64,000 nt of DNA from a virus (IMGVR_UViG_3300035703_000034:1-64000), one strand, 5' to 3'. Counted from the first letter of the stretch, positions 17,825 to 57,117 are shown. Numbers and translations: made by a program. The notes: generated by a model from the sequence alone, not told the origin.

Positions 17825-17832
17825 CGATAATC
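17825..17832 (+). promoter_or_regulatory. Putative phage promoter motif variant CGATAATC
   Basis: Intergenic, upstream of a GGAGG RBS and the 17850 start. Confidence 0.45.
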
Positions 17833-17849: not shown

Positions 17850-18494
17850 ATGCAACCGCCCATCAGTCCGGACATGAGAGAGCGCGAGCTCGGCGATCGC
17901 ATCGGGTTCTGGGGCGCGACGGCCGGCACCGCCGCCGTCGCCGCCACCCAGCAGCCCAAGGTCCGACAGCTGCTCGGCCTGGCGGTGAAGGCCGCCGGGC
18001 TCGGCGAGGCCTTCGACCCGCTCGACGCGCAGCACCAGCAGTGGCTCGCGCAGCACGTCGCGCGGCAGAAGCAGGCCACCTTGCACGCCTGGCAGGGCCT
18101 GCCTGCCGATCGGCAAGCGCAGACGCGCGGGGCCGTCAAACAGGCGTTGAACGCGTTTGACGACGTGCTCGCCTACGGCCGCTACGCCGAGAAGGTCGCC
18201 CGGGTGGCGATGACGCCCCAGATGGTCGCCGACCTCGACCTCGAGGGCCACCTCGCGCTGGCCGACCTGCGCGACAAGACGACCTTCCGCGCCGCGCTGG
18301 GGCTCGGGGCCGGCAGCCTGGCTGGCGGCATGCTCGCGCGCAAGGGGCCGGTGCCGTCGTTCGCGATGCCGGCCGGCGCCCTGCTCGGCGGGCTCGCGGG
18401 CGGCATGTTGGGCGTCGCCTCCGTGCCGACGCACCGCGAGCTCTCGAACATCTACCTGCAGAGCATGGCGCGCCAGCGGCGCATGGCCCCATGA
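17850..18494 (+). CDS. Glycine-zipper membrane protein, KxA-motif family
   Basis: C-terminal GxxxG hairpin. Contains VKAA, QKQA and EKVA motifs. Confidence 0.6.
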   Translation: MQPPISPDMRERELGDRIGFWGATAGTAAVAATQQPKVRQLLGLAVKAAGLGEAFDPLDAQHQQWLAQHVARQKQATLHAWQGLPADRQAQTRGAVKQALNAFDDVLAYGRYAEKVARVAMTPQMVADLDLEGHLALADLRDKTTFRAALGLGAGSLAGGMLARKGPVPSFAMPAGALLGGLAGGMLGVASVPTHRELSNIYLQSMARQRRMAP

Positions 18495-19249
18495 CCCACC
18501 CCTGGCTCGCCCTGGTCCAGGAACGCCGTGCGGCCGCCAGCCTCAAGCAGGCCGCGGCGCAGCGGCCCGCGCCGCCTGCGGCGGCCACCCCGCTCGCGAG
18601 CACCTACGCCCAGTACCACCCGCTCATCCAGAAGACCGTGCACCAGTGGTCCGGCTCCGGCCTGCCCGCGATCGTGCTCGAGGCGGAGGCCAAGCGCCTG
18701 GTGGCGCAGGGCCTGAGCTCGTACGACCCGGCCAAGGGCACCCAGCTCTCGACCCACCTGATGAGCCACCTGCGGCAGATGGACGCCTTCGTGAACACCT
18801 ACGGCCCCGCCATCCGGGTGCCGCAGGACCGGGCGCTCGCGCAGCGGCGGGTCGGCACGATCACAGCCGAGTACGAGAACCGGTTCAACCGGGCGCCCAC
18901 GCCCCAGGAGCTCTCCGCGCAGCTGGGCGTGCCCGTCCACAACCTCGGCAGCCTGCACCGGCAGCAGGTCAACCTCTACTCGAAGGCGCAGGCCGGTGGC
19001 TTCGCGCAGCCCGTGCGCGAGGACCTGAGCGCGCATCAGATCGCGCTCGACTACGTGTACCACGACCTGCCCGCCACGCACCGGCAGGTGTTCGCGTACA
19101 GCCTCGGCTACAACGGCGCGCCGAAGCTGACGCCCGGCGCGATCGCCACCCAGCTCAACCTGTCGCCCGCGCGCGTGTCCCAGCTCAAGGCCGACATTGC
19201 GGAGCGCACGCGGCGCTACGGGCGCGCCGTCGAGAGTCTGATGGCCTGA
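18491..19249 (+). CDS. Sigma-70-family (FliA/WhiG-like) RNA polymerase sigma factor
   Basis: Region 2 'SYDPAKGTQLSTH', region 3 'RAPTPQELSAQLGV', region 4 HTH 'LTPGAIATQLNLSPARVSQL'. Confidence 0.8.
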   Translation: MTHPWLALVQERRAAASLKQAAAQRPAPPAAATPLASTYAQYHPLIQKTVHQWSGSGLPAIVLEAEAKRLVAQGLSSYDPAKGTQLSTHLMSHLRQMDAFVNTYGPAIRVPQDRALAQRRVGTITAEYENRFNRAPTPQELSAQLGVPVHNLGSLHRQQVNLYSKAQAGGFAQPVREDLSAHQIALDYVYHDLPATHRQVFAYSLGYNGAPKLTPGAIATQLNLSPARVSQLKADIAERTRRYGRAVESLMA

Positions 19250-19286
19250 TGCCCGATCGGCGTATCATTCAACAGGAAGTCTCGTC

Positions 19287-20192
19287 ATGCGTAAAACGGC
19301 CTACTTGACCCACCTCCCGTTCGATCCCATCACCGAAGGCGAGGAGGCACAGGCCACGTCGCCCTTCCCGGTCGATGCGCACGGGCGACCGATGACGATG
19401 CTCCAGGCGTACTACCAGGCCCGCCCGCTCAACCCGCTGCTGCCGATGCCCGCGTTCGAGCCGAGTGACGCCTACTGGCACACCATGCTCTTACGCGCAC
19501 AGCTGCGGCAGCAACACCAGGGACTGGGGGAACTGATGCGACCCATCGACTTGTACCGCGTCAAGCGCGCGACCGAAGAAGCCCACCGGTACGACGACCG
19601 GATCGACCCCATCTTGCTGCACCCGCTGCTCTCCGCGCGGCCCAAGACGCTCGACGAGCTGGGCGATCGGCGGCAGGAGTACAACATCGGCCTCGGTGCC
19701 GGCGGCACCATCGGCGCGTTGGGCGGGGCCGCGCTCGGCATGATGGCCCGGAAGTTCTACCCGAAAGGCCCGGCGCTCATCCCGGCCGCGGGGGCGCTGA
19801 CGGGCGCCGCGACGGGAGCCGGCCTGGCGCTCTGGCCGACGACCATCAAGCGCTTCATGTCGAACGTGGACCGCCACGATCGGGCCGTCAAGGACTTCGA
19901 AGACATGACGGGCAAGGAGCTTTCCTTCACGACCCGTCACCCGTACCTGACGGACGCGGGCGCTGCGATCGGGGGCGGACTCGCCGGCATGGCCATCGGC
20001 GCGGCGGTGGGCGGCATGACCGGACACGGCGCGGTGCGCGGGGCGTTCATGGGCAACATCGGCGGATCGATCATGGGCCCGTTGCTCAGCATGGGTGCAC
20101 AGGCGGGCCGCAAGGACGAGGTGGGGCCGTACATCGACCCGAAGCGCCTGCGCGGCTACGGCTACACGCTCTGGGATCACTACGAGGATTGA
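19287..20192 (+). CDS. Glycine-zipper membrane protein with HPYL module
   Basis: Two GxxxG hairpins separated by 'HDRAVKDFEDMTGKELSFTTRHPYL'. Contains KTA and KRA motifs. Confidence 0.7.
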   Translation: MRKTAYLTHLPFDPITEGEEAQATSPFPVDAHGRPMTMLQAYYQARPLNPLLPMPAFEPSDAYWHTMLLRAQLRQQHQGLGELMRPIDLYRVKRATEEAHRYDDRIDPILLHPLLSARPKTLDELGDRRQEYNIGLGAGGTIGALGGAALGMMARKFYPKGPALIPAAGALTGAATGAGLALWPTTIKRFMSNVDRHDRAVKDFEDMTGKELSFTTRHPYLTDAGAAIGGGLAGMAIGAAVGGMTGHGAVRGAFMGNIGGSIMGPLLSMGAQAGRKDEVGPYIDPKRLRGYGYTLWDHYED

Positions 20193-20201
20193 GGCTTGAC
20201 C

Positions 20202-21464
20202 ATGACCACCCCTGTTGTTGTTGATCCCATCCTCCGCCACCCCTGGGCCGCCATCAAGCCCAAAGACGAGCAAGATTTCAAGGGCAAGAGCGGTGAGCTG
20301 GTCCGGGCCGGCATCGTTGGCGGCGTGCTCGGCCTCGGCGCGGGCGTCGCGGCGGTGAAGCTGCTGCACCAGCGCGCGGTGGACAAGGTGCTGCGCCGCG
20401 ACATACACAGCCTCTTCGATCACACGGTCACGCTGCCGTTCGCCGCGGACCCATTGGGGTTCGTCAACAGCAGCGTCGGAGTTGGCGGTGGGTTGGGCAT
20501 AGGTGCGGTCGCGGCGCGCCAAGCGTATGATCACATCAGTCGGCACGCCGAGGCGGCACAGCAGTACGAGGCGCAAACGGGGCGAAAGATTCCCTTCATG
20601 GCGCGGCACCCCTACCTGCTGTCCGCAGCACCCGCCCTGGGTGGCGCGGCCCTGGGTGCCGCTGTCGCCGGCAAGGGTCTCGGCATGCGCACGTTGGGAG
20701 CAAGTGGCGGCCTCTTGGTGGGCGGCCTCGCGGGGTCCCCGTTGCTGGCCAACGCCGGCGCCGACGCCCGTGCGGCGTTCTTCGACGTCCACAAGCAGGC
20801 CAACACCATCAACCCGATCCTGCTCCACCCCACCCTCGTCAAGCGGCCTGCCACGCCGGAAGAGGCCGAGGCGCGCGGCAAGGACTACGCGGGCTTCATG
20901 GGGACCGGGGCGGCGCTCGGCACCCTGGCGGGCGCGGGCCTCGGGCTGTACCTGGCCAAGCGCTACGGCGACGGCGACATGCCCGCGCACATGGCCGGCT
21001 TCGGCGGCGCTGTCGGCGGTGCCCTGGCCGGCACGGTCGCCGGCGGTGCCGGCGCGTACTTCAAGCGCTACGCCCAGGCCATCCAGGAGCACGACGCTGC
21101 GGCGCGCCAGTACGAGGCCCAGTCCGGCACGAAGCTGCCGTTTTCGGTGCGGCACCCCCACGCGATGCTCTGGGGGCCGATGGCGCTCGGCACGGCCGCG
21201 GGTGCCGCGCTCGGGTCGCATGCCCGTCTGGGCCTCTCGCGGGCGTCGCGGCCCGTGGGTGCCGCGATGGGCCTGATGGGCGCGGCCATGACCGCCGCGC
21301 CGCTGTCGGCGGCCCATGCTTACGCGCAGCGGCGCGACATGTTCAAGGACAAGGTTGGTCCGCTGTCCACCGAGATGTACGGGGGCGACTTCGGCTCCGA
21401 CATCCAGACCCTCGAGGATCGCCAGAAACAGCGCGACGAGGTGGCCGAGCTCGGGATCTCCTGA
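20202..21464 (+). CDS. Glycine-zipper membrane protein with two tandem HPYL modules
   Basis: Internal duplication ('DPILRHP'/'NPILLHP'; 'KIPFMARHPYL'/'KLPFSVRHPHA') joined at 'VHKQA'. Confidence 0.7.
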   Translation: MTTPVVVDPILRHPWAAIKPKDEQDFKGKSGELVRAGIVGGVLGLGAGVAAVKLLHQRAVDKVLRRDIHSLFDHTVTLPFAADPLGFVNSSVGVGGGLGIGAVAARQAYDHISRHAEAAQQYEAQTGRKIPFMARHPYLLSAAPALGGAALGAAVAGKGLGMRTLGASGGLLVGGLAGSPLLANAGADARAAFFDVHKQANTINPILLHPTLVKRPATPEEAEARGKDYAGFMGTGAALGTLAGAGLGLYLAKRYGDGDMPAHMAGFGGAVGGALAGTVAGGAGAYFKRYAQAIQEHDAAARQYEAQSGTKLPFSVRHPHAMLWGPMALGTAAGAALGSHARLGLSRASRPVGAAMGLMGAAMTAAPLSAAHAYAQRRDMFKDKVGPLSTEMYGGDFGSDIQTLEDRQKQRDEVAELGIS

Positions 21465-21474
21465 CGCCCGTCCC

Positions 21475-24400
21475 ATGCGCACCCCCGAAGAAACCTTCCA
21501 GGCAATGAGCGCCGAGCTCGGCGAGGGCCTCAAGCAGGCTTTTCCCGTCGTGACGAAGGACGGCAAGGCGCTGCAGCTGCTCAAGCTGCACCCGCCCGAG
21601 CTGCCCGACCCCCACGATTACAACGCGCAGAAGGCCGCCATCATGGCGGGCGAGACCTGGGGCACGCCGCTCAAGGCGACGGTCGCGCTGCTCGGCCCCG
21701 ACGGCAAGCAGTTCGACAAGCGCGACATGCGCCTCGGCACGCTCCCGACGCCGACCAACCGGCACACCTTCATCCTCAACGGCAAGGAGTACCAGGTCAA
21801 CCACCAGCGTCGGCTGCGGCCCGGCATCTACACCAAGTTCAGCCGGCTCGGCGAGGCGCTGGCCGACTTCAACCTCGCCCAGGGCCGCAACTTCTCCGTG
21901 GGGCTAGACCCCGACGAGAACCGCTTCTTCATGCGCTACGGCAACACCCACGTGCCGCTGCTGCCCGTGCTCCAGCACCTCTACGAGCAGAAGTCCGTCG
22001 GACTCGGCAAGGCCTTCGACCACCCGGTGACGCCCGACGAGGCCACGAGCGCCCTCAAAACCCTCCACACCATGGTGCTGCCCAACGCGCCCGTGCCAGA
22101 TAACATGGGCGCCCTGAAAACGGCCCTAAAAGAAAAGCTGGGGCTGGCGAGCCTCGACCCCGACGTCACGGGCATCACCGTGGGCAACCGCCACGAAACC
22201 GTGTCAGGGCGCGCGTTGCAGGACGCGGCGAGGCAGGTGCTCGCCGTCCACAAGCGCGACGCGCTGCCGAGCACCAAGGAGCAGCTCGCCTTCACCGAGG
22301 TCCACGGCGTCGAGGACTTCCTGAAAGAGAAGTTCGTGAAGGGCCGCACCCAGCTGAAGTACCGGCTGACGCCCGCGCTCGCCACCAAGACCGAGCTTGC
22401 GAAAATCAACGTCAAGGGCGCGGTCGATGGCCTCATCAAGGAGTTCTTCATCGGCTCCGCCCAGTCCAACGTCGTGCAGCAGATCAACCCGCTCGAGATG
22501 AAGGAGAACGCCTTCAAGCTCACCAGCCTCGGCGAGGGCGCCATCGGAGACACCCACGCCATCAGCCCCGAGGTGCGCGTCATCCACCCGAGCAGCATGG
22601 GCTTCATCGACCCCGTCCGCACCCCCGACAACGCCAAGGCCGGGGTCGACGTGCGCTTCGCCGTGAACACCAAGAAGGTCGGCAAGCAGATTTTCACCAA
22701 GGTGAAGGACCTCCAGACCGGCCAGTACGTCATGAAGTCGCCCGTCGAGCTCTACGACGCCGTGGCCGCTCCCGACCTCGAGCCCGCCGCCAACGGCCTC
22801 GTGCGCGCCGTGCACCGCGGCGCCCTGGTCGACGTGCCGCTGCAGCAGGTGCGCTACCAGCTGCCCGCCAACGACAGCTTCACCGTCAGCACCACGCTCG
22901 TGCCGTTCCTCCAGAACACCCACGCCCACCGCGCCGCCATGGGCGCGAAGATGCTGGGCCAGGCCGTCAGCCTGCTCGACCGGGAGGCCCCGCTCGTCAC
23001 GACGCCGCACGCCGAGACCGGCATCGGCGACTTCCTCATCAAGGCCCCCGTGGCCGGCACCATCACGAAGATCGAGAACGGCGTCCTCACGCTGACAGAT
23101 GCAAAAAACCATATCCATCGCATCAGCTACCCCCACGAGTTCCCCCTCAACGGCCACAGCTTCTTGCACGCCGAGCTCAAGGTGAAGGTCGGCGATCGCG
23201 TGGCGGCGGGCCAGCTGCTGGCCGACAACAACTTCAGCCGCAACGGCCAGGTCGCCCTCGGCAAGAACCTGACGGTCGCCTACATGCCCTACAAGGGCCT
23301 CAACCACGAGGACGCTGTGGTCATGACCCGCCAGGGCGCGGACAAGCTCATATCCCAACATCTGCATACGTTCGAGGCCCTCAAGGACGATCGCGCGGTG
23401 CACAGCAAGAAGGCTTACCAAGCGCACTACCCCGGCGAGTACGAGCTCAAGCACTTCGACAAGCTCGACGACGACGGCGTCGTGAAGGTCGGGCAGGTGC
23501 TCGAGCACGGCGACCCCATCATGCTCGGGTTGCGCAAGCGGCTCATGTCCCCCGAGCAGCTGCTGCTCGGCAAGGCCAACAAGGGCGTGCTCAACCCCAT
23601 GATCGACACGACCCAGGCCTGGGATCGCCCGTACCCGGGCAAGGTCTCGGCCGTGCAGAAGACGAGCCAGGGCATCAAGGTCACGATCACGGCCAACGCG
23701 CCCATGCAGGTGGGCGACAAGGTCTGCGGCCGGCACGGGAACAAGGGCGTCGTCTCCGTCATCATCCCGAACGAGGAGGCCCCCCGCACCGCCGACGGCA
23801 AGGTGCCCGACCTCATCCTCAACTCGGCCGGGTTGACCTCCCGCATGAACAACGGCCAGCTCTACGAGGTGATCGCCGCCAAGGCCATCCAGAAGCTGGG
23901 GCTGCCCCAGCAGACCTTCCCGCACTTCGCGGGCGTCAACACCTACAACCTGGTCAAGACCCTGCGCGACAAGGCCAAGATCTCCGAGACCGACGAGCTG
24001 TTTGACCCCAAGACCGGGCGCAGCCTGGGGCCCACGTTGATGGGTCCGATGTACGTGCTCAAGCTCTTCAAGCAGGCCGAGACCGGCTTCTCCGCCCGGG
24101 CGGGCGGCGAGTACGACATCGACCTGCGCCCCGCGAAGGGCGGCGAGGAGGGCGCGAAGTCCGTCGGCACGCTCGACTTCTTCAGCCTGCTCTCGCACGG
24201 CAGCCGCAAGCTGCTCGCCGACGCGCACCTGAAGAGCGAGTTCAACCCCGAGGTCATGGAGGCCATGTGGAAGGGGCAGCCGCTGCCCCCGCCCAAGCCG
24301 ACCTTCGCCTGGAACAAGTTCCAGGGCATGCTGACGGGCATGGGGCTCAACGTGAAGAAGACCGGCAACCAGCTCGCCTTGCTGCCGCTGCACGACCACG

Positions 24401-25767
24401 AGGTGCTCGCCATGTCGAACGGCCGGGTCACCGAGCCGTTGACGGTCTTCGACAAGCCCGACCCCGTGACGAACCTGCCCTTCCGCCCGGAGCCGGGCGG
24501 GCTCTTCGACCCCACGGTGACGGGCGGGCTCGTCGGCAACCGCTGGAGCCACATCAGCCTGCACGAGCCCGTGCTCAACCCCATCTTCAAGAACGCCGCC
24601 CGCACGATCCTCGGGCTGCCCAAGGCCCAGTTCGAGCAGACCCTTTACGAGAAGGGCGCCGGGCACGTCCAGCAGCAGCTGAGCCTGATCGACCCCGCCA
24701 AGCGCCTCGCCGAGCTGCAATCCGAGCTCGCCAAGACCAACTCGACCTCGAAGCGCGACGCCATCTACAAGCAGATCAAGTACCTGCGCCCGCTGGCCGA
24801 CAACAAGCTGAAGCCCGACACGGCCTACGTGCTCAACCACATCCCCGTGCTGCCGCCCGCCATGCGCCCCATCTACCCGGACCCCCAGACGGGCCGGATG
24901 GTCGTGTCGGACGCCAACCAGCTCTACAAGAACCTGCTGCTGGTCAACCAGCAGCTGCGCACGCACAGCACGCTGGGCGACGCCGCCACGACGACGGCGC
25001 TGCGCCAGGGGCTCCACGAGGCCGTCGCGGCCGTGCAGGGCTTCGACGGCACGCCCGAGAAGCTCGGCTTCAACCAGGAGCCGCCGCCCTCGGGCTTCCT
25101 CAAGGTCATCACCGGCACGGCCCAGGCCAAGGACGGCTTCTTCCAGTCCAAGCTGCTCTCCCGCCGTCAGGACGTCGCGGCCCGCGGCGTGGTGGTGCCC
25201 GACACGAGCCTGGAGATCGACGAGGTGGGGCTGCCCAAGCCGATGGCGATGAAGCTCTACCGCCACCACGGCGTCGGCGAGCTGGTGCAGTCGGGCATGC
25301 CGCTGCTCAAGGCCGCCGAGGAGTTCGAGAACGAAACCCCCACTGCCGTGAAGGCCGTCCAGGCTGCTATGATGAAGTTCCCCGCGATTGTCACGCGCGC
25401 ACCCTCGCTGCACAAGTTCAACTTGATGGGCTTCAAGCCCAAGATCGTCGACGGCAAATCGGTGCGCGTGAACACCCTCGTGCTCAAGGGCTTCAACATG
25501 GACTTCGACGGGGACCAGAGCACCATCCATGTGCCCATCAGCCCGGAAGGGGCCGCCGACGCGCGCCGCATGATGCCCTCGAACAACCTGTTCAGCCCGC
25601 TCAACAACGGCCCCGTGCACGTGCCCTCGCAAGAGACGGTCTACGGGCTGTGGAAGGCGACGGTCGCCAAGGGCGCCCCCGTCCAACGTTTCCCGAACAA
25701 GGCCGCCGCCCTCGCGGCGTTCCAAGCAGGTCGGATCCGCATCACGGACCCCATCGAAATCGGTTAA
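21475..25767 (+). CDS. DNA-directed RNA polymerase, beta subunit fused to N-terminal half of beta'
   Basis: Beta motifs 'FILNGKEY', 'VRVIHPS...DPVRTPD', 'RAAMGAKM..QA', 'GDKVCGRHGNKGVV', 'SRMN.GQ'. Beta' motifs 'GLFD', 'IPVLPPAMRP', 'KLLSRRQD..ARGVV', 'RAPSLH', catalytic 'FNMDFDGDQ'. Confidence 0.93.
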   Translation: MRTPEETFQAMSAELGEGLKQAFPVVTKDGKALQLLKLHPPELPDPHDYNAQKAAIMAGETWGTPLKATVALLGPDGKQFDKRDMRLGTLPTPTNRHTFILNGKEYQVNHQRRLRPGIYTKFSRLGEALADFNLAQGRNFSVGLDPDENRFFMRYGNTHVPLLPVLQHLYEQKSVGLGKAFDHPVTPDEATSALKTLHTMVLPNAPVPDNMGALKTALKEKLGLASLDPDVTGITVGNRHETVSGRALQDAARQVLAVHKRDALPSTKEQLAFTEVHGVEDFLKEKFVKGRTQLKYRLTPALATKTELAKINVKGAVDGLIKEFFIGSAQSNVVQQINPLEMKENAFKLTSLGEGAIGDTHAISPEVRVIHPSSMGFIDPVRTPDNAKAGVDVRFAVNTKKVGKQIFTKVKDLQTGQYVMKSPVELYDAVAAPDLEPAANGLVRAVHRGALVDVPLQQVRYQLPANDSFTVSTTLVPFLQNTHAHRAAMGAKMLGQAVSLLDREAPLVTTPHAETGIGDFLIKAPVAGTITKIENGVLTLTDAKNHIHRISYPHEFPLNGHSFLHAELKVKVGDRVAAGQLLADNNFSRNGQVALGKNLTVAYMPYKGLNHEDAVVMTRQGADKLISQHLHTFEALKDDRAVHSKKAYQAHYPGEYELKHFDKLDDDGVVKVGQVLEHGDPIMLGLRKRLMSPEQLLLGKANKGVLNPMIDTTQAWDRPYPGKVSAVQKTSQGIKVTITANAPMQVGDKVCGRHGNKGVVSVIIPNEEAPRTADGKVPDLILNSAGLTSRMNNGQLYEVIAAKAIQKLGLPQQTFPHFAGVNTYNLVKTLRDKAKISETDELFDPKTGRSLGPTLMGPMYVLKLFKQAETGFSARAGGEYDIDLRPAKGGEEGAKSVGTLDFFSLLSHGSRKLLADAHLKSEFNPEVMEAMWKGQPLPPPKPTFAWNKFQGMLTGMGLNVKKTGNQLALLPLHDHEVLAMSNGRVTEPLTVFDKPDPVTNLPFRPEPGGLFDPTVTGGLVGNRWSHISLHEPVLNPIFKNAARTILGLPKAQFEQTLYEKGAGHVQQQLSLIDPAKRLAELQSELAKTNSTSKRDAIYKQIKYLRPLADNKLKPDTAYVLNHIPVLPPAMRPIYPDPQTGRMVVSDANQLYKNLLLVNQQLRTHSTLGDAATTTALRQGLHEAVAAVQGFDGTPEKLGFNQEPPPSGFLKVITGTAQAKDGFFQSKLLSRRQDVAARGVVVPDTSLEIDEVGLPKPMAMKLYRHHGVGELVQSGMPLLKAAEEFENETPTAVKAVQAAMMKFPAIVTRAPSLHKFNLMGFKPKIVDGKSVRVNTLVLKGFNMDFDGDQSTIHVPISPEGAADARRMMPSNNLFSPLNNGPVHVPSQETVYGLWKATVAKGAPVQRFPNKAAALAAFQAGRIRITDPIEIG

Positions 25768-25849
25768 TGCTCTCTCCGAGGTCGCCCCCGCTGCCACGCA
25801 GCGCGGGGTGCGCTCGGCATCGCTCAGTCATCGCTATGTGGAGGTTATT

Positions 25850-28362
<2,513 letters not shown>

Positions 28363-28366
<4 letters not shown>

Positions 28367-28371
28367 TAATT
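28363..28371 (+). promoter_or_regulatory. Putative phage promoter motif CTGATAATT (overlaps nrdJ stop)
   Basis: Exact motif copy 5 nt upstream of the ATG at 28377. Confidence 0.55.
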
Positions 28372-28376
28372 GGGGT

Positions 28377-30056
28377 ATGACCCTGCCCCATAAGTTCGCC
28401 AACCTGGGGGAGGAGCTGCTGCACGCGGCCGGTCACGCGGCCCACGTGCAGCACCTCGCCCCCCACGACGCGCCCGCGCCGCGCAAGCCTGCCAAGCCGT
28501 CGAGCCTGGGCCGGGCCGCCGTGGCGCGGGTCAAGCAGGCCGCCATGACGGCGGACTTCCAGGCCAAGGCCCACCAGCAAGAGGCCATCGACCGGCTGCA
28601 TGCGAACAACGGCGCGCTGCTGTTGATGCACGGCACCGGCACGGGCAAGACGCCAACCAGCCTCTACGGCGTTGAGACCCTGCGCGACAAGGGCCGGGCC
28701 ACCCGCACGCTCGCGGTGGTCCCGGCGCCGTTGCGCGAGAACTTCCTCAACGAGGGCGTGCACAAGTTCACGGACCGCAAGGGCGTGAAGTTCGGGCCCA
28801 AGGGCGAGGCCGGCAGCATCCACATCAGCGGCCGCATCCCGAAGGCCGACTACTACGTCGTCTCCAACGAGATGTTCCGCAAGGACCCCGCCGCCTACCT
28901 CAAGGCCACCGGCGCCGACACGATCGTCTGGGACGAGGCCCACAAGGGCCGCTCCGACCAGTCGCTCAACTACCAGGCCATGCGCCAGGCCCGCGGCCAG
29001 GTGAAGAACTTCCTCGCGCTCTCGGCCACGCCCGTGGTCAACCACCCGCGCGACCTCGTGCCGCTCATCGACATCGTCACCAACGGCAACCACCGCCTCG
29101 GCACGCCCCAGCAGTTCGACCGCCTCTACACCGGCACCGTCACGCAGTTGCACGGCCCGTGGGCCAGCTTCGGCATCGGCCACCAGACGCGCGAGACGGT
29201 GCTCAAAAACACCCACCACCTCGCCGCCGAGCTCAACCGTCACATCCACTACGTGCCCGTCGAGGACGTCGCCAAGGACATGCCCAAGAAGGTCGTCCAC
29301 GACGTGCCCGTCGAGATGTCTGCCCACCAGAAGGCGCTCTACGACTTCCAGATGGCGAAAATCGACCCGCTGATGGCCGAAAAAATCCGCAACAACGTGC
29401 CCGTCGGCCAGTCCGAGGCCCGCTCGATCCTCACCAAGATCATCCGGGCGCGCGCCATCTCCAACTCCGTCCACGCGGGCGATCGCCGCTTCACCCCCGC
29501 GTCCGCGGCCGTCGCCACGCCCAAGATGAAGCGCATGCTCGACGACGTGACGGCCCACCTGGCAGCCGACCCCAAGCACAAGGCCATCGTCTACACCAAC
29601 CTGGTGAACGGCGGCGTCGACTCCGCCGTGGCAGGGCTGCGCGCCCGCGGGGTGGAGCCTGGCATGTTCATCGGCAGCACCCACCAGAAGAAGTCCGAGC
29701 GCCAGCAGCACATCCAGGACTACCTGGCCGGCAACAAGCGCGTGATGGTCATCAACTCGGCCGGCACGGAGGGCCTGAACCTGCCCGGCACCACCGCCCA
29801 CTTCACCCTGGACCCCCACTGGAACCTCAGCCTCATGGAACAGGCGGAAGCCAGGGGCATCCGGGCGGGCTCGCCCGTCAAGCAGGTGGATGTCTACCGC
29901 TACACCAGCGCCCCGCCCAAGATGCTCGGCATGTTCCGCTCCAACGAGGCCACCGTCGACCAGTGGGTCTACAACGTCGCCAACCGCAAGGAGCGGCTCA
30001 ACCGCCAGCTGCTGGGCCTGCTGCAGCGCCCCCGGAGGTCCGATGGCACGCCTTAG
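28377..30056 (+). CDS. SNF2-family (SF2) helicase/ATPase
   Basis: 'HGTGTGKT' (motif I), 'VWDEAH' (II), 'LSATP' (III), 'GTEGLNL' (V), 'QAEARGIR' (VI). Confidence 0.88.
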   Translation: MTLPHKFANLGEELLHAAGHAAHVQHLAPHDAPAPRKPAKPSSLGRAAVARVKQAAMTADFQAKAHQQEAIDRLHANNGALLLMHGTGTGKTPTSLYGVETLRDKGRATRTLAVVPAPLRENFLNEGVHKFTDRKGVKFGPKGEAGSIHISGRIPKADYYVVSNEMFRKDPAAYLKATGADTIVWDEAHKGRSDQSLNYQAMRQARGQVKNFLALSATPVVNHPRDLVPLIDIVTNGNHRLGTPQQFDRLYTGTVTQLHGPWASFGIGHQTRETVLKNTHHLAAELNRHIHYVPVEDVAKDMPKKVVHDVPVEMSAHQKALYDFQMAKIDPLMAEKIRNNVPVGQSEARSILTKIIRARAISNSVHAGDRRFTPASAAVATPKMKRMLDDVTAHLAADPKHKAIVYTNLVNGGVDSAVAGLRARGVEPGMFIGSTHQKKSERQQHIQDYLAGNKRVMVINSAGTEGLNLPGTTAHFTLDPHWNLSLMEQAEARGIRAGSPVKQVDVYRYTSAPPKMLGMFRSNEATVDQWVYNVANRKERLNRQLLGLLQRPRRSDGTP

Positions 30057-30300
30057 CCAGCTGCGCGAACCCGACGATGCCTGCACCGTGCGCGTCACCA
30101 AGCTCTCGCCGATCGCCCTCGCCGACCTGCGGGACCTGTGCGATCGCGAGCGCTTGCCGATCGACATGCGGGTCAAGGGGGAGTACCTCGGCGAGACCGT
30201 CGTCGAGCTGATGGCCCCCTACAAGGAGCTGCTCCAGTACCTCGTGTGGCTCTTCAGCCGCGAGTACGCGCACCCGTTCGAGCTCGAGGCCAGCGCATGA
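30043..30300 (+). CDS. Small hypothetical protein
   Basis: GGAGG RBS before ATG 30043. Its stop overlaps the next start (ATGA). Confidence 0.6.
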   Translation: MARLSQLREPDDACTVRVTKLSPIALADLRDLCDRERLPIDMRVKGEYLGETVVELMAPYKELLQYLVWLFSREYAHPFELEASA

Positions 30301-32144
30301 GCGTCACGACGATCGGGCAGCTGCTCATCGAGCAGACCCTGCCGGACGACATGAAAACGACCGGCACCCTCAACAAGAAGGGCGTGAGCACCCTGCTCGG
30401 CAAGCTCGCCCAGCAGCACGCGCCCCGCTACGGCAGCGTGGTCAAGAACCTGCGCGACGTCGGCAACCAGATCGCCTACGAGTCGGGCACCAGCTTCAAG
30501 CTCGAGGACCTCCGCCCGATGACCGAGCTGCGCGACGCCGCCGTCGAGGCCCACGGCAAGGAGCTCGCCGCCCTGCACGCCCAGCTGGCGAAGAACCCGG
30601 CGCTGTCCTTCGACCCCCACTTCCAGCAGAAGCAGGTTGCCCTGCACGCCAGGATCGAGGAGAAGGTCAACCAGGCCGTTGCCCAGCGCATCGAGAAGGC
30701 CCCCAACAACCTGACGGGCTGGGTCGCCTCCGGCGCCCGCGGCGACACCGCGATGGCGCGCCAGATGGTCGGCATGGCCGGCATGAACCTCGATGCGACC
30801 AACCGCCTGCTGCCGCACGTCGCCTGGCGAAGCTTCTCCGAGGGCCTCAGCCCCGTCGACTTCCACGTGCACGCCCAGGGCGCGCGCCGGGGCCTCGTCA
30901 ACACCTACAACTCCGTGCGCGACCCCGGCGCCTTCGCCAAGGAGCTCAACACCATCCAGGTCGACATGACCATCACGGGCACGGACTGCCACACGACCCG
31001 CGGCCGCAGCCTGCCGGCCGACAGCCCCGACCTGATGGGCCGCTACCTGGCCCAGGACGTGCCGGGCGTCGCCGGGCGCAACGAGCTCGTCACGCCGCGC
31101 GTCGCCCAGGCCCTCAAGGCCAAGGGCGGCACGGTGGTCGTGCGCTCGCCGCTCTACTGCCAGGAGACCTCGGGCGTGTGCGCCCACTGCCACGGCCCCA
31201 ACGAGGAGGGCAAGCTCCCGCAGCTCGGCGACGCCGTGGGCCTCAAGTCCTCGCAGGCGCTGACCGAGCCGCTCACCCAGCTGGCTCTCAACCAGAAGCA
31301 CACGGGCGGCGTCGTGGGCGCAGGCAAGTCCCCGCTCCACGCGATCCTCCAGCTGATGCACGCCCCCAAGATCTTCGTGGGCGCGGCCACCGTGGCGAAG
31401 CGCTCCGGCACCATCGACGCCGTCGCCGAGGCGCCCGCGGGCGGCTTCCACGTCACGGTCAGCGGCACCAAGCACTACGTCCCGCCCGATTTGACCGTGA
31501 AGGTCAAGGTCGGTCAGACCATCGCCCGGGGCGACGCGCTCTCGACCGGCCCGCTCAACCCCGTCGACGTCGTGCAGCACAAGGGCATGGAGCAGGGCCG
31601 CATGTACTTCGCCGACGCCCTGCGCGGCCTGTACGCGGACTCCGGCATCACGGGCCACCCGCGCGTCTTCGAGACCGTCACGCGCGGCATCCTCAACCTC
31701 GGCCAGGTCGTGCACCCGGGTCGCTCGACCTACAGCCCCGGCGAGGTCGTCCACTGGAACAAGGTCCAGAACGACCTCTCCGCCGAGCCGGAGCGCGTCG
31801 GGCTCGCGCAGGCCACGGGCCGCATCCTCATGCACGAGGCGGGGCCGCTCGCACCGTACACCACCCTGACGCCCGCCCACGTGGCGCAGCTGAAGGGCCA
31901 CGGCCTCACGACGGTGCCGGTCTTCAAGCGCGACGCGCTGGTGGTGCAGCCCCTCATGCTCGGCACCGAGCGCGCGGCCCTGCACAAGGGCGACTGGCTC
32001 TCCAACCTGGCCTTCCGCTTCGTCACCTCGACCTTCAAGGAGAACGCGGCGACGGGCGCCACCGCCACCATCGCCAACTCGTTCAACCCGCTCGGCCCCT
32101 ACGTGACCGGCAGCATCGGGCGCGGCACGGGCGGCCGGTACTAG
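30297..32144 (+). CDS. RNA polymerase beta' subunit, C-terminal half
   Basis: 'TTIGQLL', 'SGARG...QMVGMAG', 'SFSEGLSPVDF', bridge helix 'GARRGL', Zn site 'DC...RSPLYC...VCAHCHG', trigger loop 'EPLTQLALNQKHTGG'. Confidence 0.9.
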   Translation: MSVTTIGQLLIEQTLPDDMKTTGTLNKKGVSTLLGKLAQQHAPRYGSVVKNLRDVGNQIAYESGTSFKLEDLRPMTELRDAAVEAHGKELAALHAQLAKNPALSFDPHFQQKQVALHARIEEKVNQAVAQRIEKAPNNLTGWVASGARGDTAMARQMVGMAGMNLDATNRLLPHVAWRSFSEGLSPVDFHVHAQGARRGLVNTYNSVRDPGAFAKELNTIQVDMTITGTDCHTTRGRSLPADSPDLMGRYLAQDVPGVAGRNELVTPRVAQALKAKGGTVVVRSPLYCQETSGVCAHCHGPNEEGKLPQLGDAVGLKSSQALTEPLTQLALNQKHTGGVVGAGKSPLHAILQLMHAPKIFVGAATVAKRSGTIDAVAEAPAGGFHVTVSGTKHYVPPDLTVKVKVGQTIARGDALSTGPLNPVDVVQHKGMEQGRMYFADALRGLYADSGITGHPRVFETVTRGILNLGQVVHPGRSTYSPGEVVHWNKVQNDLSAEPERVGLAQATGRILMHEAGPLAPYTTLTPAHVAQLKGHGLTTVPVFKRDALVVQPLMLGTERAALHKGDWLSNLAFRFVTSTFKENAATGATATIANSFNPLGPYVTGSIGRGTGGRY

Positions 32145-34895: not shown

Positions 34896-35546
34896 CTACT
34901 GGTTGAAACTGAACCGGGGTGGCTCGGGCGGCTCCGGCGGCCGCGGCCCCTGCGCCGGCCGGGGCGCCTGGGGCGGACGCGGGGCCTGGGGCGGCCGGGG
35001 CGCGGGCGGCTGCGCCGGACCCCTGATGGAATCCACCAAACCCTTGCCCATCTCGATGGGGAGCATGGCGGTGCCACCCCACATCAAGGCGCGCTGCGCC
35101 GTGATCTTGCGGCCCGCGCGGGTGTCGAACGCGCCCGACCCTGCCACCCCGCCGCGATCGCCCAGCATCGGCACGCCGCTCAGCTTGCGGCCGTCGTAGG
35201 TCCCGATGGACGGCCCCTTGTTGAGGAAGTCCCGGAACCACACGTCGGCCTTTGAGCCCAGCCGGCGCAGGCCGCCGCTCTCGGCCATGTACTCGCCCGA
35301 GCCGCCCCACTGCTTGAGCTTGCCGCCGGCCGTCTGCAGCCCCTTGATCTTGAAGAAGTTGCCGACGCCGGAGGCCGCGCGCCCGGCGCCGTGCAACGCG
35401 TGCCCGGCCATCCCGATCAGCGCCGGCAGCCCGGCGGCCGTCGACACGCCGGAAGCGAGGCCCGCGAGGGCGCCGAGCACGGCCGCCTTCTCCATGTCGT
35501 TCTCGCAGGCCTGCAGCTGCATGTAGACTCGGTACGCACCCGGCAC
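34896..35546 (-). CDS. Gly-rich membrane-associated protein, KxA family, Pro-rich tail
   Basis: 'MEKAA' followed by a glycine-zipper helix. C-terminal (PQAPRP)n repeats. Confidence 0.6.
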   Translation of the reverse strand: MPGAYRVYMQLQACENDMEKAAVLGALAGLASGVSTAAGLPALIGMAGHALHGAGRAASGVGNFFKIKGLQTAGGKLKQWGGSGEYMAESGGLRRLGSKADVWFRDFLNKGPSIGTYDGRKLSGVPMLGDRGGVAGSGAFDTRAGRKITAQRALMWGGTAMLPIEMGKGLVDSIRGPAQPPAPRPPQAPRPPQAPRPAQGPRPPEPPEPPRFSFNQ

Positions 35547-41193: not shown

Positions 41194-42423
41194 ATGTCGA
41201 ACACTGCATGGGATATGTACCAGGCCATGATGAAGCAGTCCGCTGACGCCCTGGTGCCGGGCCAGGTGGGCATGGGGATGACCCCGGGGGTCACGGGCAT
41301 GCTGGACTCGGACCCGATGACGGCCAGCAACTCGGCCATCGCGGCCCAGCGCGCGGCGATGCAAGAAGCCGCCCTGCTCCACGCCAACGCCGACGCCGGC
41401 GCCGGCTACTCGACGCCCGCTCCTGGCACGAGCCCCTCGCTCCAGATGGCCGCGGACGTCAAGGCCGCATCCGTCGTCGACGAGGCCATCAAGTTCGCCG
41501 AGCACGTGTACCTGATGAACAAGCAGGCCGTAGCTTACGTGGAGGGGCCGACCGGCGCGGCCGCCGCGGACGTCGAGGCGGTTCTGCAAAACCGTGCGTT
41601 CTCGCGTCTCGGGGCGGATTACAAGTTTGAGCCCAAGGGCATGATGGCTCAGCTCAAGGCTGCTCCCGGCGCTTGGCTCGAAATGGCCAAGGGTAACCGC
41701 GGCCTGGGGCGGCAAGCGATGGCCATCGGCGGGCCGCTCGCGGCCGTGGGCGCACTCGGCTACGGTGGTTACCATATGATGCAGCCGCCGGCGCCCGAGA
41801 TGCTGCCTCCGGCGCCCGAGATGGAGCCGAAGGCCGCCTTCCAGCTGCCGTTCACCAACTACCACCTCGTGCACCGTCCCACGATGGGTCAGCGCGTGGA
41901 TCGCGCCGTCGAGTTCATGCGGGCCCAGGCGCAGAAGGTCAACAACCCGGCGGGCTACGTCGCGATGGGCGCCACCGGTCTCGCAGGCGCTGCGGGCGGA
42001 GCCTACATGATGGATCCTGAGATGGCGGCGATGAAGTCGGCCGCGGACACGGTGGTCTACGCCAACATGCTGAAGCGCGCGGCTGAGGAAGACGCCGCCG
42101 CGGCTGCGGCAGATGCCGCCAAGCCGGGCTTCATCGACAAGGCCAAGGGGTACTTGAACAGGGGCGTCAACGCGTACGACACGTTCTCGGCCGCGCACCC
42201 CCGCATGGTGCCTGCGGGCGCGCTCGCAGTCGGTGGTGCCGCCGGCTTCGGCGCGGCCCACTACATGGCCCACCAGGCGCAGCTCGCCCAGCAGGCGGCG
42301 GCGGCCGAGCAGGGCCTCGCGGCCCCGCAGAACGAGGCGATGGCCTACATGAAGGCCGCCGCGCTCAACGAGGCGGCCAACGCGGGTCAGCTGATGGCGC
42401 TCCGCCAGCTCGGCCTCGCCTGA
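41194..42423 (+). CDS. KxA-rich polyprotein-like protein with three Gly-rich hydrophobic segments
   Basis: 8 of 16 Lys are in K-x-A. Repeated 'G..A..GA.GYxM' hydrophobic segments. Confidence 0.65.
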   Translation: MSNTAWDMYQAMMKQSADALVPGQVGMGMTPGVTGMLDSDPMTASNSAIAAQRAAMQEAALLHANADAGAGYSTPAPGTSPSLQMAADVKAASVVDEAIKFAEHVYLMNKQAVAYVEGPTGAAAADVEAVLQNRAFSRLGADYKFEPKGMMAQLKAAPGAWLEMAKGNRGLGRQAMAIGGPLAAVGALGYGGYHMMQPPAPEMLPPAPEMEPKAAFQLPFTNYHLVHRPTMGQRVDRAVEFMRAQAQKVNNPAGYVAMGATGLAGAAGGAYMMDPEMAAMKSAADTVVYANMLKRAAEEDAAAAAADAAKPGFIDKAKGYLNRGVNAYDTFSAAHPRMVPAGALAVGGAAGFGAAHYMAHQAQLAQQAAAAEQGLAAPQNEAMAYMKAAALNEAANAGQLMALRQLGLA

Positions 42424-45751: not shown

Positions 45752-47137
45752 ATGACCGATCAGCCGTTTGAGAAACGCATCGACCTTGCCCACGACTACC
45801 TCAACGAGGGGGAGTCGCGCGTGGTGCCGCTCGCCGTCTCGTACGGCCAGCTGACCGTCGACGATCGCGCGAGCCGCGGCCACGTGAAGACCGCCGCGGC
45901 CGAAGAGGCCCTGGCTGCCTGCGCCAACGTCAAGCCGCAGGCCGACCGGGTCTACGCGCTCGTCATCGGGCTGGGTTCTTCCGAGTTCTGGGGCGTCAAC
46001 AACAACGGCGACAGCTTCCCGGAGAACGCCCTGCTGGGCCTGCCGCCGGTCGACTCGCCGATGGCGTTCTTCGACAAGTACAAGGCGCGCATCCGGCCGG
46101 GCTGGGGCTACAAGACCTTCCTCAAGGGCCACGTCTTCGAGGAGCACCGCAACTCCAACCCGCGCTTCGCCATCGGCGGCATCCAGGACACCTTTTGGAA
46201 CAACCGCATGCACCGCGTCGAGAACCTCATCTGGATCGACCGGAAGAAAGGCAAGAAGTGGGCCGAGCGCCTCGACGCCGGCAAGACGATCGGCACGAGC
46301 ATGGCCTGCAAGGTGCCCTTCGACCGCTGCAGCCTGTGCAGCAACCTCGCGCCCACCCGCGCGCAGTACTGCCCGCACCTCAAGCCCGGCACCAGCGCCT
46401 ACCAGCTGCGGCAAATTCGCGACGACGGCCTCGCCGTCAGCATGATCAACGACTTCCCGCACTTCTTCGACGAGAGCTGCGTGGAGAACCCGGCCGCCCC
46501 CGAGGCGCTTTCCATCATGAAGGTCGCTAGCGACGCGGCCAAGGTCGCGGCCCGGAAGCAGGCCGAGCTGAAGAAGACCGGGCCGGACCTCCCGCTCGAC
46601 GTGATGCTCGACGACGTCAAGCAGCTCTACCAGTCCGAGCCGCACCTGCCCGCCTCCGTGATCGACAAGCTGCGGCAGTTCCCGCTGACGGACGTCACGG
46701 CCGGGCTCAAGAAGCTCGGCATGGCGCTGCGGCCCTCCGAGATGTTCGCGCTGTGCTACGGGGCGGACGCGCTGCCGACCAAAGTGGCGCGCGACCTCGA
46801 CGACCAGGTCTGGGTGGCGCCCGTGCGCGACGGCTACGACCCGCGCCTCGCCGAGGCGGCCCAAGTGAAGATCGCGAGCCTGCCGGACCCCCGCGCCACC
46901 CAGCGCGTGGTCGACCTGCTCACGCCCTTCGCCACGAAGCGCAGCTACCTCGAGCCCTACCTGACGCCCCGGCTGATGCAGACCCCCGTCAAGGCGGCCC
47001 ATGCGATCGTGGCGCGGCCCGACCTGCAGCCCTACCTCGATGCCTACCACGGCCTGTACAAGCGTGCGAGCGGCGAGTTCGGCTACGGCGCGACCCAGCT
47101 GTACGCGACCTACCAGGGCCTGCACGGAGCGTGGTGA
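45752..47137 (+). CDS. Prohead maturation protease (HK97/assemblin fold) with Zn-finger insert and C-terminal extension
   Basis: 'NNNGDSF', catalytic His in 'FEEH', Ser in 'GTSMAC', 'FFDESCVENPA' (F.E.S.V..PA-like). Lies upstream of the capsid gene. Confidence 0.75.
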   Translation: MTDQPFEKRIDLAHDYLNEGESRVVPLAVSYGQLTVDDRASRGHVKTAAAEEALAACANVKPQADRVYALVIGLGSSEFWGVNNNGDSFPENALLGLPPVDSPMAFFDKYKARIRPGWGYKTFLKGHVFEEHRNSNPRFAIGGIQDTFWNNRMHRVENLIWIDRKKGKKWAERLDAGKTIGTSMACKVPFDRCSLCSNLAPTRAQYCPHLKPGTSAYQLRQIRDDGLAVSMINDFPHFFDESCVENPAAPEALSIMKVASDAAKVAARKQAELKKTGPDLPLDVMLDDVKQLYQSEPHLPASVIDKLRQFPLTDVTAGLKKLGMALRPSEMFALCYGADALPTKVARDLDDQVWVAPVRDGYDPRLAEAAQVKIASLPDPRATQRVVDLLTPFATKRSYLEPYLTPRLMQTPVKAAHAIVARPDLQPYLDAYHGLYKRASGEFGYGATQLYATYQGLHGAW

Positions 47138-47454
47138 TGCGCCCTTACGAAGCGTACTGGCTGCACAAACAGGCGAGCGACGGCGTCGACTGGCACGCCC
47201 TGCGGCAGAAGACCCACGACCACCTGCACGCCGCCCAAGCGTACTGGCAAGCCAACAAGCCCGCGATGCTGCGCTCGACGGCGAACAACCTGATGTACGG
47301 GCTGCTCACCAGCCGGGCGACAGGGCCGGTCTCGCTGGTCGGCTCGAGCACGGGCGGCGTCATCGACGGCATGCTGTTCCGGCCCGCGACGGACGCCACG
47401 ATCAACCTGGTGGGGACGGGCTTACGAAAGTTTTACGGTTTGGGTGAAAAATAG
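47137..47454 (+). CDS. Small KxA-family protein
   Basis: 'HKQAS'. Coupled to the protease stop (TGATG). Confidence 0.55.
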   Translation: MRPYEAYWLHKQASDGVDWHALRQKTHDHLHAAQAYWQANKPAMLRSTANNLMYGLLTSRATGPVSLVGSSTGGVIDGMLFRPATDATINLVGTGLRKFYGLGEK

Positions 47455-56727: not shown

Positions 56728-57117
56728 ATGGAAAAACCGCCCAAACCGGAACCGGCCTGCGCGCGGATCGACGCGGTGGTGCACCAGACCCTCAAGGACT
56801 GCCTCGCCCAGCACGGCGGCGCGCCGGCCGAGCTGTGCATGGCGATCGACGTATCATTGAAGTGGTTGTCCGAGCAGGGCGCGCCGTGCCGCGCGTTCGA
56901 GGTGCGGCTGGCGCAGGGCGGCGTCGGCTTCCGGTGCCTGGAGGCGGGCGAGGCCGCCCACCCCGAGGGGCTCTGGAAGCTGCTGCTGCTCGCCAGCGCG
57001 CCGCGCACGGGCCCGGACGGCGCCCCGCTGCTGGTGCCGACCACGTTGAACTGGTCCTCGGACACGCAGCGCTTGACGGTGGAGTACGCCCGCGCCGATG
57101 AAACACCTGACGCGTAA
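56728..57117 (+). CDS. Hypothetical protein
   Basis: AGAGG RBS, divergent from the sheath, overlaps the sigma start. Confidence 0.5.
   Translation: MEKPPKPEPACARIDAVVHQTLKDCLAQHGGAPAELCMAIDVSLKWLSEQGAPCRAFEVRLAQGGVGFRCLEAGEAAHPEGLWKLLLLASAPRTGPDGAPLLVPTTLNWSSDTQRLTVEYARADETPDA

Follow-up and report, generated by a model that had tools for sequence, protein, structure and literature searches.

Packaged transcription machines are known from N4 and phiKZ-like phages, and poxviruses package their RNA polymerase (RNAP) with the SNF2-like ATPases VETF D6 and NPH-I for early transcription. In the phiKZ-like phages phiKZ, 201phi2-1 and SPN3US, the head carries a multisubunit RNAP that serves early transcription (PMC5694885). 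The beta subunit of this virion RNAP (vRNAP) loses a propeptide in 201phi2-1 and not in SPN3US, and in SPN3US vRNAP must assemble before any subunit is incorporated (PMC5694885). In T4, the capsid-targeting sequences (CTS) are propeptides of 10-20 residues on unrelated cargo (IPI-III, Alt, gp24), which end at the motif of the prohead protease gp21 (PMC5694885, PMC3012670). A Snf2-type helicase co-varies with RNAP genes in jumbo phages according to comparative genomics (PMC7824862), and in E. coli the Swi2/Snf2 ATPase RapA works with the multisubunit RNAP (PMC8666675). Here we analysed a 64,000-nucleotide (nt) stretch of viral DNA (IMGVR_UViG_3300035703_000034:1-64000; the window), in which the genes of a sigma factor (18491) and a Swi2/Snf2 helicase (28377) each encode an N-terminal leader ending in Lys-Gln-Ala-Ala (KQAA). 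The best explanation of the whole, drawn from sequence comparison, is that these leaders are trimmed by the prohead protease and that the proteins are carried in the virion as a transcription machine. We give this explanation an even chance of being right. The features on which it turns are the following.

18491-19249, + strand: sigma-70-family factor (regions 2-4); phrog_351 match (E 4.5e-6), profile match in the PDB, orthologue of Gp10 of Salmonella phage Arash
18491-18556, + strand: sigma leader, residues 1-22, ending K19-Q-A-A22 (nt 18545-18556), proposed propeptide
28377-28544, + strand: helicase leader, residues 1-56, ending K53-Q-A-A56 (nt 28533-28544), proposed propeptide
28545-30056, + strand: Swi2/Snf2 ATPase core, Q motif to C-terminus; Pfam SNF2-rel_dom and Helicase_C above cut-off
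45752-47137, + strand: prohead protease, proposed reader of K-x-A; phrog_18299 (head maturation protease), fold match
50334-51242, + strand: major capsid protein (MCP), with K19-V-A-S22 (50388-50399) before the conserved body; phrog_2522, orthologue N-termini
57098-57991, + strand: second sigma factor (Sigma70_r2), orthologue of Arash Gp196, no leader

Relatives were fetched whole from IMG/VR via protein-level similarity. With the contig under study called G000, they are G001 (153 kb), G002 (75 kb), G003 and G004 (204 and 208 kb, with terminal repeats and 100% complete) and the distant relative G005 (202 kb).

Translation of the 18491 frame begins MTHPWLALVQERRAAASLKQAA (MTHPW...SLKQAA). A profile of nine sigma homologues (A1) matched SigB in the PDB (E 5e-9, profile positions 48-249) and also RpoS, SigA and FliA, with regions 2, 3 and 4 in order; with the single sequence, the Pfam matches to regions 3 and 4 were below the cut-off. 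By profile, the product reads as a genuine sigma-70-family factor. Its binding to core RNAP and its part in promoter recognition are putative and are suggested indirectly by the operon that it shares with RNAP, by its fusion to the helicase in the database protein P0028 and by co-detection in Arash virions. No alternative start is available to the sigma: its frame has no start codon before 18491, where the ATG overlaps the stop of the gene upstream (ATGA), and initiation at the following in-frame Met would cost the protein region 2. Near residue 20, members of the close clade (P0047-P0053, G001, G002) retain K-x-A-[AS] amid flanking residues that vary. The exhaustive profile search gave 1132 representatives at E < 1e-10, and the statistics were made on the 150 best. 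Sixty-three of these 150 were outside the training set and had at least 20 residues upstream of the conserved LW..W helix. K.A[ASN] is present in 28 of the 63, most often 13 residues before this helix (shuffles, 3.7±1.8, maximum 10 in 500). We considered that HPWLAL at the sigma N-terminus might itself be the LW..W helix of the family. The alignment of the family tentatively favours a propeptide with a lost or degenerate W-helix.

The helicase (28377-30056) exceeds the Pfam cut-offs for PF00176 (73 bits; cut-off 24.9) and PF00271 (38.1 bits; cut-off 23.5), and its Foldseek matches are Ino80, ISWI, Chd1 and CSB (E 1e-24). Both the SNF2 N-lobe and the helicase C-lobe are present, with the Q motif and motif I. 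RapA is not among its top 50 fold matches and the N-terminal domains of RapA are absent from it. From sequence and model, the ATPase is predicted to be a bare Snf2 motor. The leader ends ARVKQAA and is followed by M57 and the Q motif (FQAKAHQQEAI). In the AlphaFold2 model, the predicted local distance difference test (pLDDT) is below 50 for residues 1-53 and the core afterwards is confident; because confidence rises after residue 53, the model places KQAA at the domain boundary. Upstream of the Q motif, no residue other than K53 is invariant across 18 homologues (down to 46% identity). Of 44 homologues, 27 have K.[AGS] exactly 13 residues before [HY]Q, and 31 of the 34 with enough upstream sequence have it at -10 to -17, compared with 7.7±2.5 of all 44 in shuffles. 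The sigma and the helicase each contain one K.A[AS], and in each it is in the leader.

A sequence-only reading of the window had described both leaders and their KQAA ends, and translation bears it out, both leaders being coding. The same reading had named an alternative, a helicase start at Met57 (28545). A start at Met57 is disfavoured, and the leader is coding, because of codon composition, a homologous leader in a relative and a promoter-like element, CTGATAAT, 6 nt before the ATG at 28377. G+C at third and second codon positions (GC3 and GC2) is 0.95 and 0.52 in the leader, as in the gene body, whereas upstream of 28377, in the same frame, GC3 is 0.54. A homologous leader, ending RAKTAA followed by M, is present in the nearest homologue, P0004 (80% identity). 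Secretion signals were also considered: a Sec/Tat signal peptide (A-x-A) was rejected for both leaders, which when read by eye have no hydrophobic core, and the proteins are cytoplasmic enzymes.

The motif is also found in the head proteins. In the proteome, K.A[AS] occurs 57 times compared with 24±4.6 in within-protein shuffles (z 7.2) and KQAA 8 times compared with 0.8, and R/E/Q.A[AS] is not enriched in the same comparison. The excess of K.A[AS] is restricted to head-module proteins (93 compared with 12.8 over orthologues, about 7-fold; tail, 14 compared with 22). The head module of Arash (L054:24730-32171, Gp218-225), a phage of 53% GC, has 23 K.A[AS] where 4.3 are expected. In MCP orthologues, K-x-A-[ASNT] lies immediately upstream of the conserved body, and the protease has K46-T-A-A (45887-45898) and K257-V-A-S (46520-46531) flanking its catalytic domain. 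At the homologous places, Arash has TKQAAAAE in the protease and VKEAGAA in the MCP (VKEAG at 26-30).

The fold of the protease was settled by VIA-align alone; the sequence profile gave no match in the PDB and Foldseek matches were weak (E 0.06-0.9). The model aligned with T4 gp21 (5jbl_A) with Z 10.0 and a root-mean-square deviation of 2.9 Å over 127 residues. It also aligned with five herpesvirus proteases (varicella-zoster virus Z 9.0, pseudorabies virus (PrV) 8.6, herpes simplex virus and human cytomegalovirus about 7), and unrelated rows had Z <= 5. In 27 homologues (down to 30% identity), K46, A48, K257, A259, H132, S183 and H209 are invariant. Residues 1-47 and 264-280 have pLDDT below 50, so that K46/A48 and K257/A259 are at the edges of the ordered domain. 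The putative catalytic residues H132, S183 and H209 run in the order His-Ser-His and were identified from conservation, without superposition on solved enzymes. C193, C196 and C207 are also invariant in the 27 homologues and could form a metal site within the domain, and the C-terminal 180 residues, after K257-V-A-S, are helical. In PrV, the assemblin sites YLQA-T and VQA-S are cut after Ala before Ser/Thr, and one of them lies just after the protease domain (PMC4498786). Because of the assemblin fold and this preference of herpesvirus proteases, K-x-A↓(A/S), where the arrow marks the proposed cut, is a plausible specificity for this fold. The release site of assemblin parallels K257-V-A-S. 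The differences are that Lys is at P3 here compared with Val/Leu/Tyr-Leu, and that the substrates of assemblin are the scaffold and the protease itself.

Most helicase orthologues (for example those of G001, G003 and G004) have a tag of 12-17 residues instead of the 56-residue leader. The tag has the form M-(x)-[RT]-P-[YFWH]-[DE]-x-[YFW]-x(3-6)-K-x-[AGS]-x, and the same tag opens the head-module families 41194-42423, 47131-47454 and 34896-35546 (- strand). A hidden Markov model (HMM) made from the head-module N-termini alone retrieved the N-terminus of the G003 helicase (independent E-value, iE, 2.8e-4). Conversely, an HMM from the N-termini of 12 database helicases alone, none of them from the genomes searched, retrieved the head-module N-termini (iE 5e-5 to 0.03). 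With a joint model, all 17 significant matches start at residue 1-4 (15) or at an internal Met (2), and the chance that a random position falls in the first four residues is 1.6%. By these reciprocal HMMs, a short N-terminal peptide ending at the motif is common to unrelated proteins, namely helicase orthologues and head-module proteins. One of the internal matches lies in the window:

19536-19574, + strand: aromatic tag with K-R-A-T, residues 84-96 of the 19287-20192 protein; tag HMM match

This tag starts at an internal Met, as does that of the G001 orthologue, and could be an internal start or a module of a polyprotein.

Natural fusions place the motif between domains. In P0028 (NCBI-derived, 770 residues), residues 4-525 are the helicase and residues 526-768 an 18491-type sigma, and its only two K.[AGS][ASTN] sites are at 13, the end of the tag, and at 531, the junction, 13 residues before the W-helix of the sigma. 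Such a fusion implies a functional tie between the two proteins. The helicase orthologue of G003 (L020:16569-19106, 845 residues) consists of the tag, an unassigned region, a NUDIX domain and the helicase. It has K-x-A-A sites at 12, 86, 209 and 341, the last two of which flank the NUDIX domain (217-335). P0013 is a fusion of the same type. In sequence, the G003-type fusion looks like a polyprotein, and sites at the domain junctions of fusions are what a processed polyprotein would show.

Promoter-like elements link both genes with the structural genes. CTGATAAT is present in 7 copies in the window compared with 0.07 expected. Two elements are relevant to the leaders.

28363-28370, + strand: CTGATAAT, promoter-like element, ends 6 nt before the helicase ATG
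17826-17831, + strand: GATAAT, promoter-like (-10-type) element, 18 nt upstream of 17850, the first gene of the sigma operon

The 17826 element is a one-mismatch copy (cGATAAT), and the 17850 gene is translationally coupled to the sigma. G001 has the element at equal distances, 18 nt before its 17850 orthologue and 6 nt before its helicase; the 6-nt spacing is also seen before G001 55173. Other copies precede the head genes 39907, 41194, 47497 and 49746, the sheath gene (phrog_279) and tail-fibre-like genes. GATAAT itself occurs 19 times in the contig compared with about 7 expected, ten of these on the right strand within 60 nt of a called start. By inspection, copies before the 49746 start and the 66069-67112 (- strand) gene raise the number of starts preceded by GATAAT to about twelve. 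Because the element is common to both genes and to head, sheath and tail genes, the 18491 sigma and the helicase are assigned on sequence to the structural-gene expression class. This agrees with the sequence-only reading, which had noted one promoter motif for both and for capsid and sheath genes. G003 and G004 use a different signal. There is no good Shine-Dalgarno sequence before 28377, and a weak AGG lies 5 nt upstream of Met57. The helicase mRNA is probably leaderless and starts at the 28377 AUG, because the element ends 6 nt before the ATG with the same spacing in G001.

Two further kinds of element were observed. CGCTCAGTCA is present at 25821-25830 and at contig positions 85365-85374 and 89678-89687, 19-30 nt before the ribonucleotide reductase (RNR) gene and two right-hand (non-structural) genes. 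Possibly it marks another class of promoter or regulatory site set into the late operon; with one mismatch allowed, its count in the window is no higher than chance, and the exact intergenic copies alone stand out. At contig positions 103995-104012 and 106159-106174, the palindromes GGATAAT-cact-ATTATCC and GATAAT-tgaa-ATTATC, which contain the -10-like hexamer, lie upstream of two genes with strong ribosome-binding sites and look like operators.

Virion data are available for Arash. Its virions were purified by sucrose gradient and pelleting, and liquid chromatography coupled to mass spectrometry (LC-MS) detected 116 of about 272 proteins (PMC10585845). RNAP Gp206 had the most spectra (3516), and beta' Gp216, helicase Gp217 and sigma Gp10 had 1210, 1148 (38 unique peptides) and 467 (PMC10585845). 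Per residue, these correspond to 2.3 (Gp206), 2.0 (Gp216), 2.4 (Gp217) and 2.0 (Gp10) spectra, with 1.5 for the portal and 4.3 for the MCP. Reciprocal comparison pairs the 18491 sigma with Gp10 (E 2e-14; Gp196, E 0.26) and the 57098 sigma with Gp196 (E 9e-8; Gp10, 9e-5). Gp196 is not in the virion table (PMC10585845). The 57098 sigma has no leader, as had been stated from the sequence, and also no K.A[AS] in the protein. The proposal of one packaged and one unpackaged sigma is therefore matched in Arash. The RNAP large subunit of Arash, Gp206 (L054:12094-16671), begins M-P-K-S-A-S. In all five genomes examined (G000, G001, G003, G004 and Arash), at least one member of the presumed RNAP-sigma-helicase set has an N-terminal K-x-A, and for this reason one tagged subunit may bring in the whole complex.

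Packaging and maturation of RNAP, a weaker suggestion of the sequence-only reading, fared unevenly: the Arash enzyme is abundant in virions, and the RNAP large subunit of the phage under study has no conserved K-x-A. We rejected RNAP as tagged cargo here. Its conserved N-terminus, MRTP[EQ]ETF, is similar to the tag's first half, yet it lacks a conserved Lys and is not scored by the tag HMMs. In the C-terminal part of beta' (beta'C), the sole conserved site of this kind is K-x-G at residue 27, inside the fold.

Several observations weigh against a cleaved packaging leader. In this phage group, neither a cleavage product nor an N-terminus has yet been seen. The Arash paper reports no processing (PMC10585845), and its supplement, which we examined for semi-tryptic peptides, holds only an annotation with gene and protein sequences. 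Arash Gp217 and Gp10 have neither leader nor K-x-A, yet both are in the virion preparation with a reported coverage of 100%, so the leader is not needed for virion association. The sigma orthologues of G003, G004 and G005 begin directly at the W-helix, without a leader. Five helicase homologues start M-I-K-L-S-A-L or alike, with the motif kept and nothing to remove. Neither the sigma leader nor the helicase leader of this phage is scored by the aromatic-tag HMM; only a helix and K-Q-A-A are kept. A test of whether mature RNAP, helicase and sigma are depleted of internal K.A[AS] lacked power, the expected counts being too low. Lastly, the Arash list includes RNR, primase and kinases, and its authors allow for carry-over (PMC10585845), which the sucrose-gradient purification and the 116 listed proteins make possible. 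Conservation, which the sequence-only reading had offered as a check, therefore came out in part: K-x-A is conserved and fixed in position in both families, and the leaders themselves are absent from Arash and from the sigmas of G003, G004 and G005. Of its virion-kit proposal, the motif shared with the head module, the promoter class and the Arash virions speak for it, and the link between leader and packaging is weakened.

The leaders might instead be uncut docking or hinge peptides, in which Lys and small residues sit at a fold boundary or bind scaffold, portal or polymerase, with capsid entry optional. In both families the motif keeps a constant distance (-13) from the first core motif, which would suit such a role, as would the M-P-K-S-A-S start of the Arash RNAP and the K-x-S-A-L of helicase homologues that start 1-3 residues upstream; a motif kept with nothing before it fits a structural or docking role for Lys. 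The segment is missing from Arash and several further homologues and is therefore dispensable for the ATPase, and AlphaFold2 puts residues 1-53 of the helicase outside the predicted fold. The motif also stands before the MCP body, around the protease domain and at the junctions of multi-domain fusions, and processing at such places in head proteins is the rule in T4, phiKZ-like phages and herpesviruses (PMC5694885; PMC4498786). We consider the docking role doubtful. We think it unlikely that the motif is cut or functional in proteins that act only in the infected cell, with the Arash spectra reflecting carry-over of abundant late proteins. The breadth of the Arash list, the sucrose gradient as the only purification and the authors' own caution favour carry-over. 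RNAP beta is the most detected protein, however, and RNAP, sigma and helicase are near-equal at 2.0-2.4 spectra per residue, above the portal at 1.5, while the second sigma is absent. The genes also use the structural-gene promoter class, and in all systems studied, as far as we know, the capsid protease acts within proheads, which also counts against carry-over.

That KQAA arose twice by chance in an Ala-rich proteome of 68% GC is very unlikely. Six non-head proteins have K.A[AS] in the first 60 residues, where the shuffled site rate gives a rough expectation of about 4, and the sigma leader does not match the aromatic tag. Both facts would fit coincidence, but the proteome-wide excess of KQAA and K.A[AS], the conservation and position statistics in homologues and the presence of the code in Arash at 53% GC do not. 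A mis-called helicase start, with translation from Met57 and no leader made, is hardly credible to us. Met57 comes right after KQAA and has the weak AGG upstream, and 28377 lacks a good Shine-Dalgarno sequence; GC3 of the leader, the P0004 leader and the -10-like element 6 nt before the ATG in G000 and G001 nevertheless support the upstream start, and the sigma leader has no alternative start at all. Trimming by the prohead protease and carriage in the virion thus remain our best explanation. Within it, we infer the cut, the leaders' role in targeting, the packaging of these proteins by this phage and the assignment of the sigmas to early and late classes.

The surrounding genes are consistent in orientation, and all genes from 17850 to 32144 considered here are on the + strand.

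17850-18494, + strand: 214-residue protein, no assigned function; its stop overlaps the sigma start (ATGA), no Pfam or PHROG match
19287-20192, + strand: glycine-rich protein, no assigned function
20196-21464, + strand: glycine-rich protein, no assigned function
21475-25767, + strand: RNAP beta fused to the N-terminal part of beta' (beta-beta'N); Pfam Rpb2_6, Rpb1_1, Rpb1_2
25850-28366, + strand: ribonucleotide reductase, large-subunit barrel domain and TSCPD domain
30297-32144, + strand: RNAP beta'C; Pfam Rpb1_4, Rpb1_5

The helicase gene lies between RNAP subunit genes here and adjoins beta'C in Arash. The RNR gene sits within the RNAP/helicase late operon. The RNRs Gp27 and Gp61 are also in the Arash virion list, either as carry-over or as unexpected cargo. 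The RNAP genes vary in structure. In G004, beta-beta'N (L032, 9898-15765) has an insert of about 510 residues near residue 1358, possibly an intein or homing element; in Vibrio phages D181 and D148 (OZ196140, OZ196545), the RNAP gene is split by a homing endonuclease; and in G005 (L050, 142665-148742), beta and the whole of beta' are in one open reading frame of 2025 residues.

The window is the start of one viral contig of 106,380 bp and 68% GC, with a CheckV completeness of 51%. Because the complete relatives G003, G004 and G005 measure 202-208 kb, the phage is taken to be part of a myovirus of about 200 kb related to Arash, the stretch under study covering about half of the genome. Arash (OQ632216, 181 kb) and three Vibrio phages were the only cultured relatives found. 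Along the full length, their RNAP large subunits have 31-32% identity to the one here. Identities to Arash are 32% for RNAP, 28% for the helicase and 30% for the sigma, and the MCP, the protease and both sigmas are also in common. A megablast of 18000-31000 against cultured phages gave no match, and relatives were reached by protein searches alone. In Vibrio phages D69, D148 and D181, which have the RNAP in common, no helicase match was found at E < 1e-15.

Comparison with the described systems shows both likeness and difference. As in T4, short N-terminal peptides on unrelated proteins end at a protease motif, and the protease has the gp21 fold; the differences from T4 are the motif, K-x-A↓(A/S) compared with L/I-x-E, and the proposed cargo, a sigma and a Swi2/Snf2 ATPase. 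In phiKZ-like phages, the gp175/gp245 protease processes head and ejection proteins at a three-residue motif, as is proposed here for K-x-A, and the leaders vary between relatives here, as processing does there. PhiKZ-like phages carry two sets of RNAP with split subunits, have no sigma-70-type factors and use an (S/A/G)-x-E motif. In this lineage there is a single RNAP, with beta fused to beta'N, along with two sigma-70-family factors and K-x-A. No second, non-virion RNAP set was found: the beta-type subunit gave one PF00562 match per genome, including three 100% complete genomes. The candidate for a switch here is the second sigma, not a second polymerase. Arash has RNAP, the Gp10 sigma and the Gp217 helicase in its virion list by LC-MS and, like this phage, a K-x-A-rich head module; it differs in that its helicase and sigma have no leader and its RNAP large subunit begins M-P-K-S-A-S instead. 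Like RapA and the poxvirus enzymes, the helicase is a Swi2/Snf2 ATPase alongside a multisubunit RNAP, the link to RNAP being putative here. It differs from RapA as a bare motor without the N-terminal domains, and the likeness shown does not extend to sequence orthology.

The phage encodes one multisubunit RNAP (beta-beta'N and beta'C), two sigmas and a minimal Swi2/Snf2 ATPase. Under this explanation, the 18491 sigma and the ATPase would be expressed as precursors from the CTGATAAT element, together with head, sheath and tail genes. Their leaders, like the T4 capsid-targeting propeptides, would bring or hold them in the prohead, probably in a complex with the polymerase, and the protease of gp21/assemblin fold would cut the leaders there at K-x-A↓(A/S). 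The predicted cuts are A21↓A22 or nearby in the sigma and A55↓A56 in the helicase. Matured sigma, ATPase and polymerase would be ejected with the DNA and transcribe early genes. The second sigma, which has no leader, would be made after infection and redirect the same core to the CTGATAAT class. A more far-reaching version is that the capsid protease doubles as the maturation switch of the injected sigma-dependent machine. The proteins would be made as tagged precursors or polyproteins, one tagged subunit would carry the complex, and the cut would release the active holoenzyme inside the head only. We hold this version tentatively, well short of expecting it to be true. Within it, the tagged set of some relatives might include the NUDIX enzyme or the polymerase itself, a point on which we are no more confident.

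The RNAP-linked Snf2 helicase of jumbo phages (PMC7824862) and the detection in Arash virions were already known. Compared with T4 and phiKZ, the new elements would be the proposed sigma-70-type and Snf2 cargo, the assemblin-like K-x-A motif and one polymerase with two sigmas. To our knowledge, an assemblin-like K-x-A↓(A/S) specificity has not yet been described for a phage. Arash is cultured and its head proteins are K-x-A-rich, which makes the idea directly testable. Like the T4 CTS, a short tag that can be moved onto foreign proteins and loads them into large capsids would serve as a useful tool. If the explanation is true, a packaged sigma-70-type factor and Snf2 motor with a propeptide code would be a third design of packaged transcription, and in the more far-reaching version the holoenzyme would be the first of sigma-70 type to be delivered by a virion. 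Swapping sigmas could then let a jumbo phage with a single polymerase run host-independent early and late programmes.

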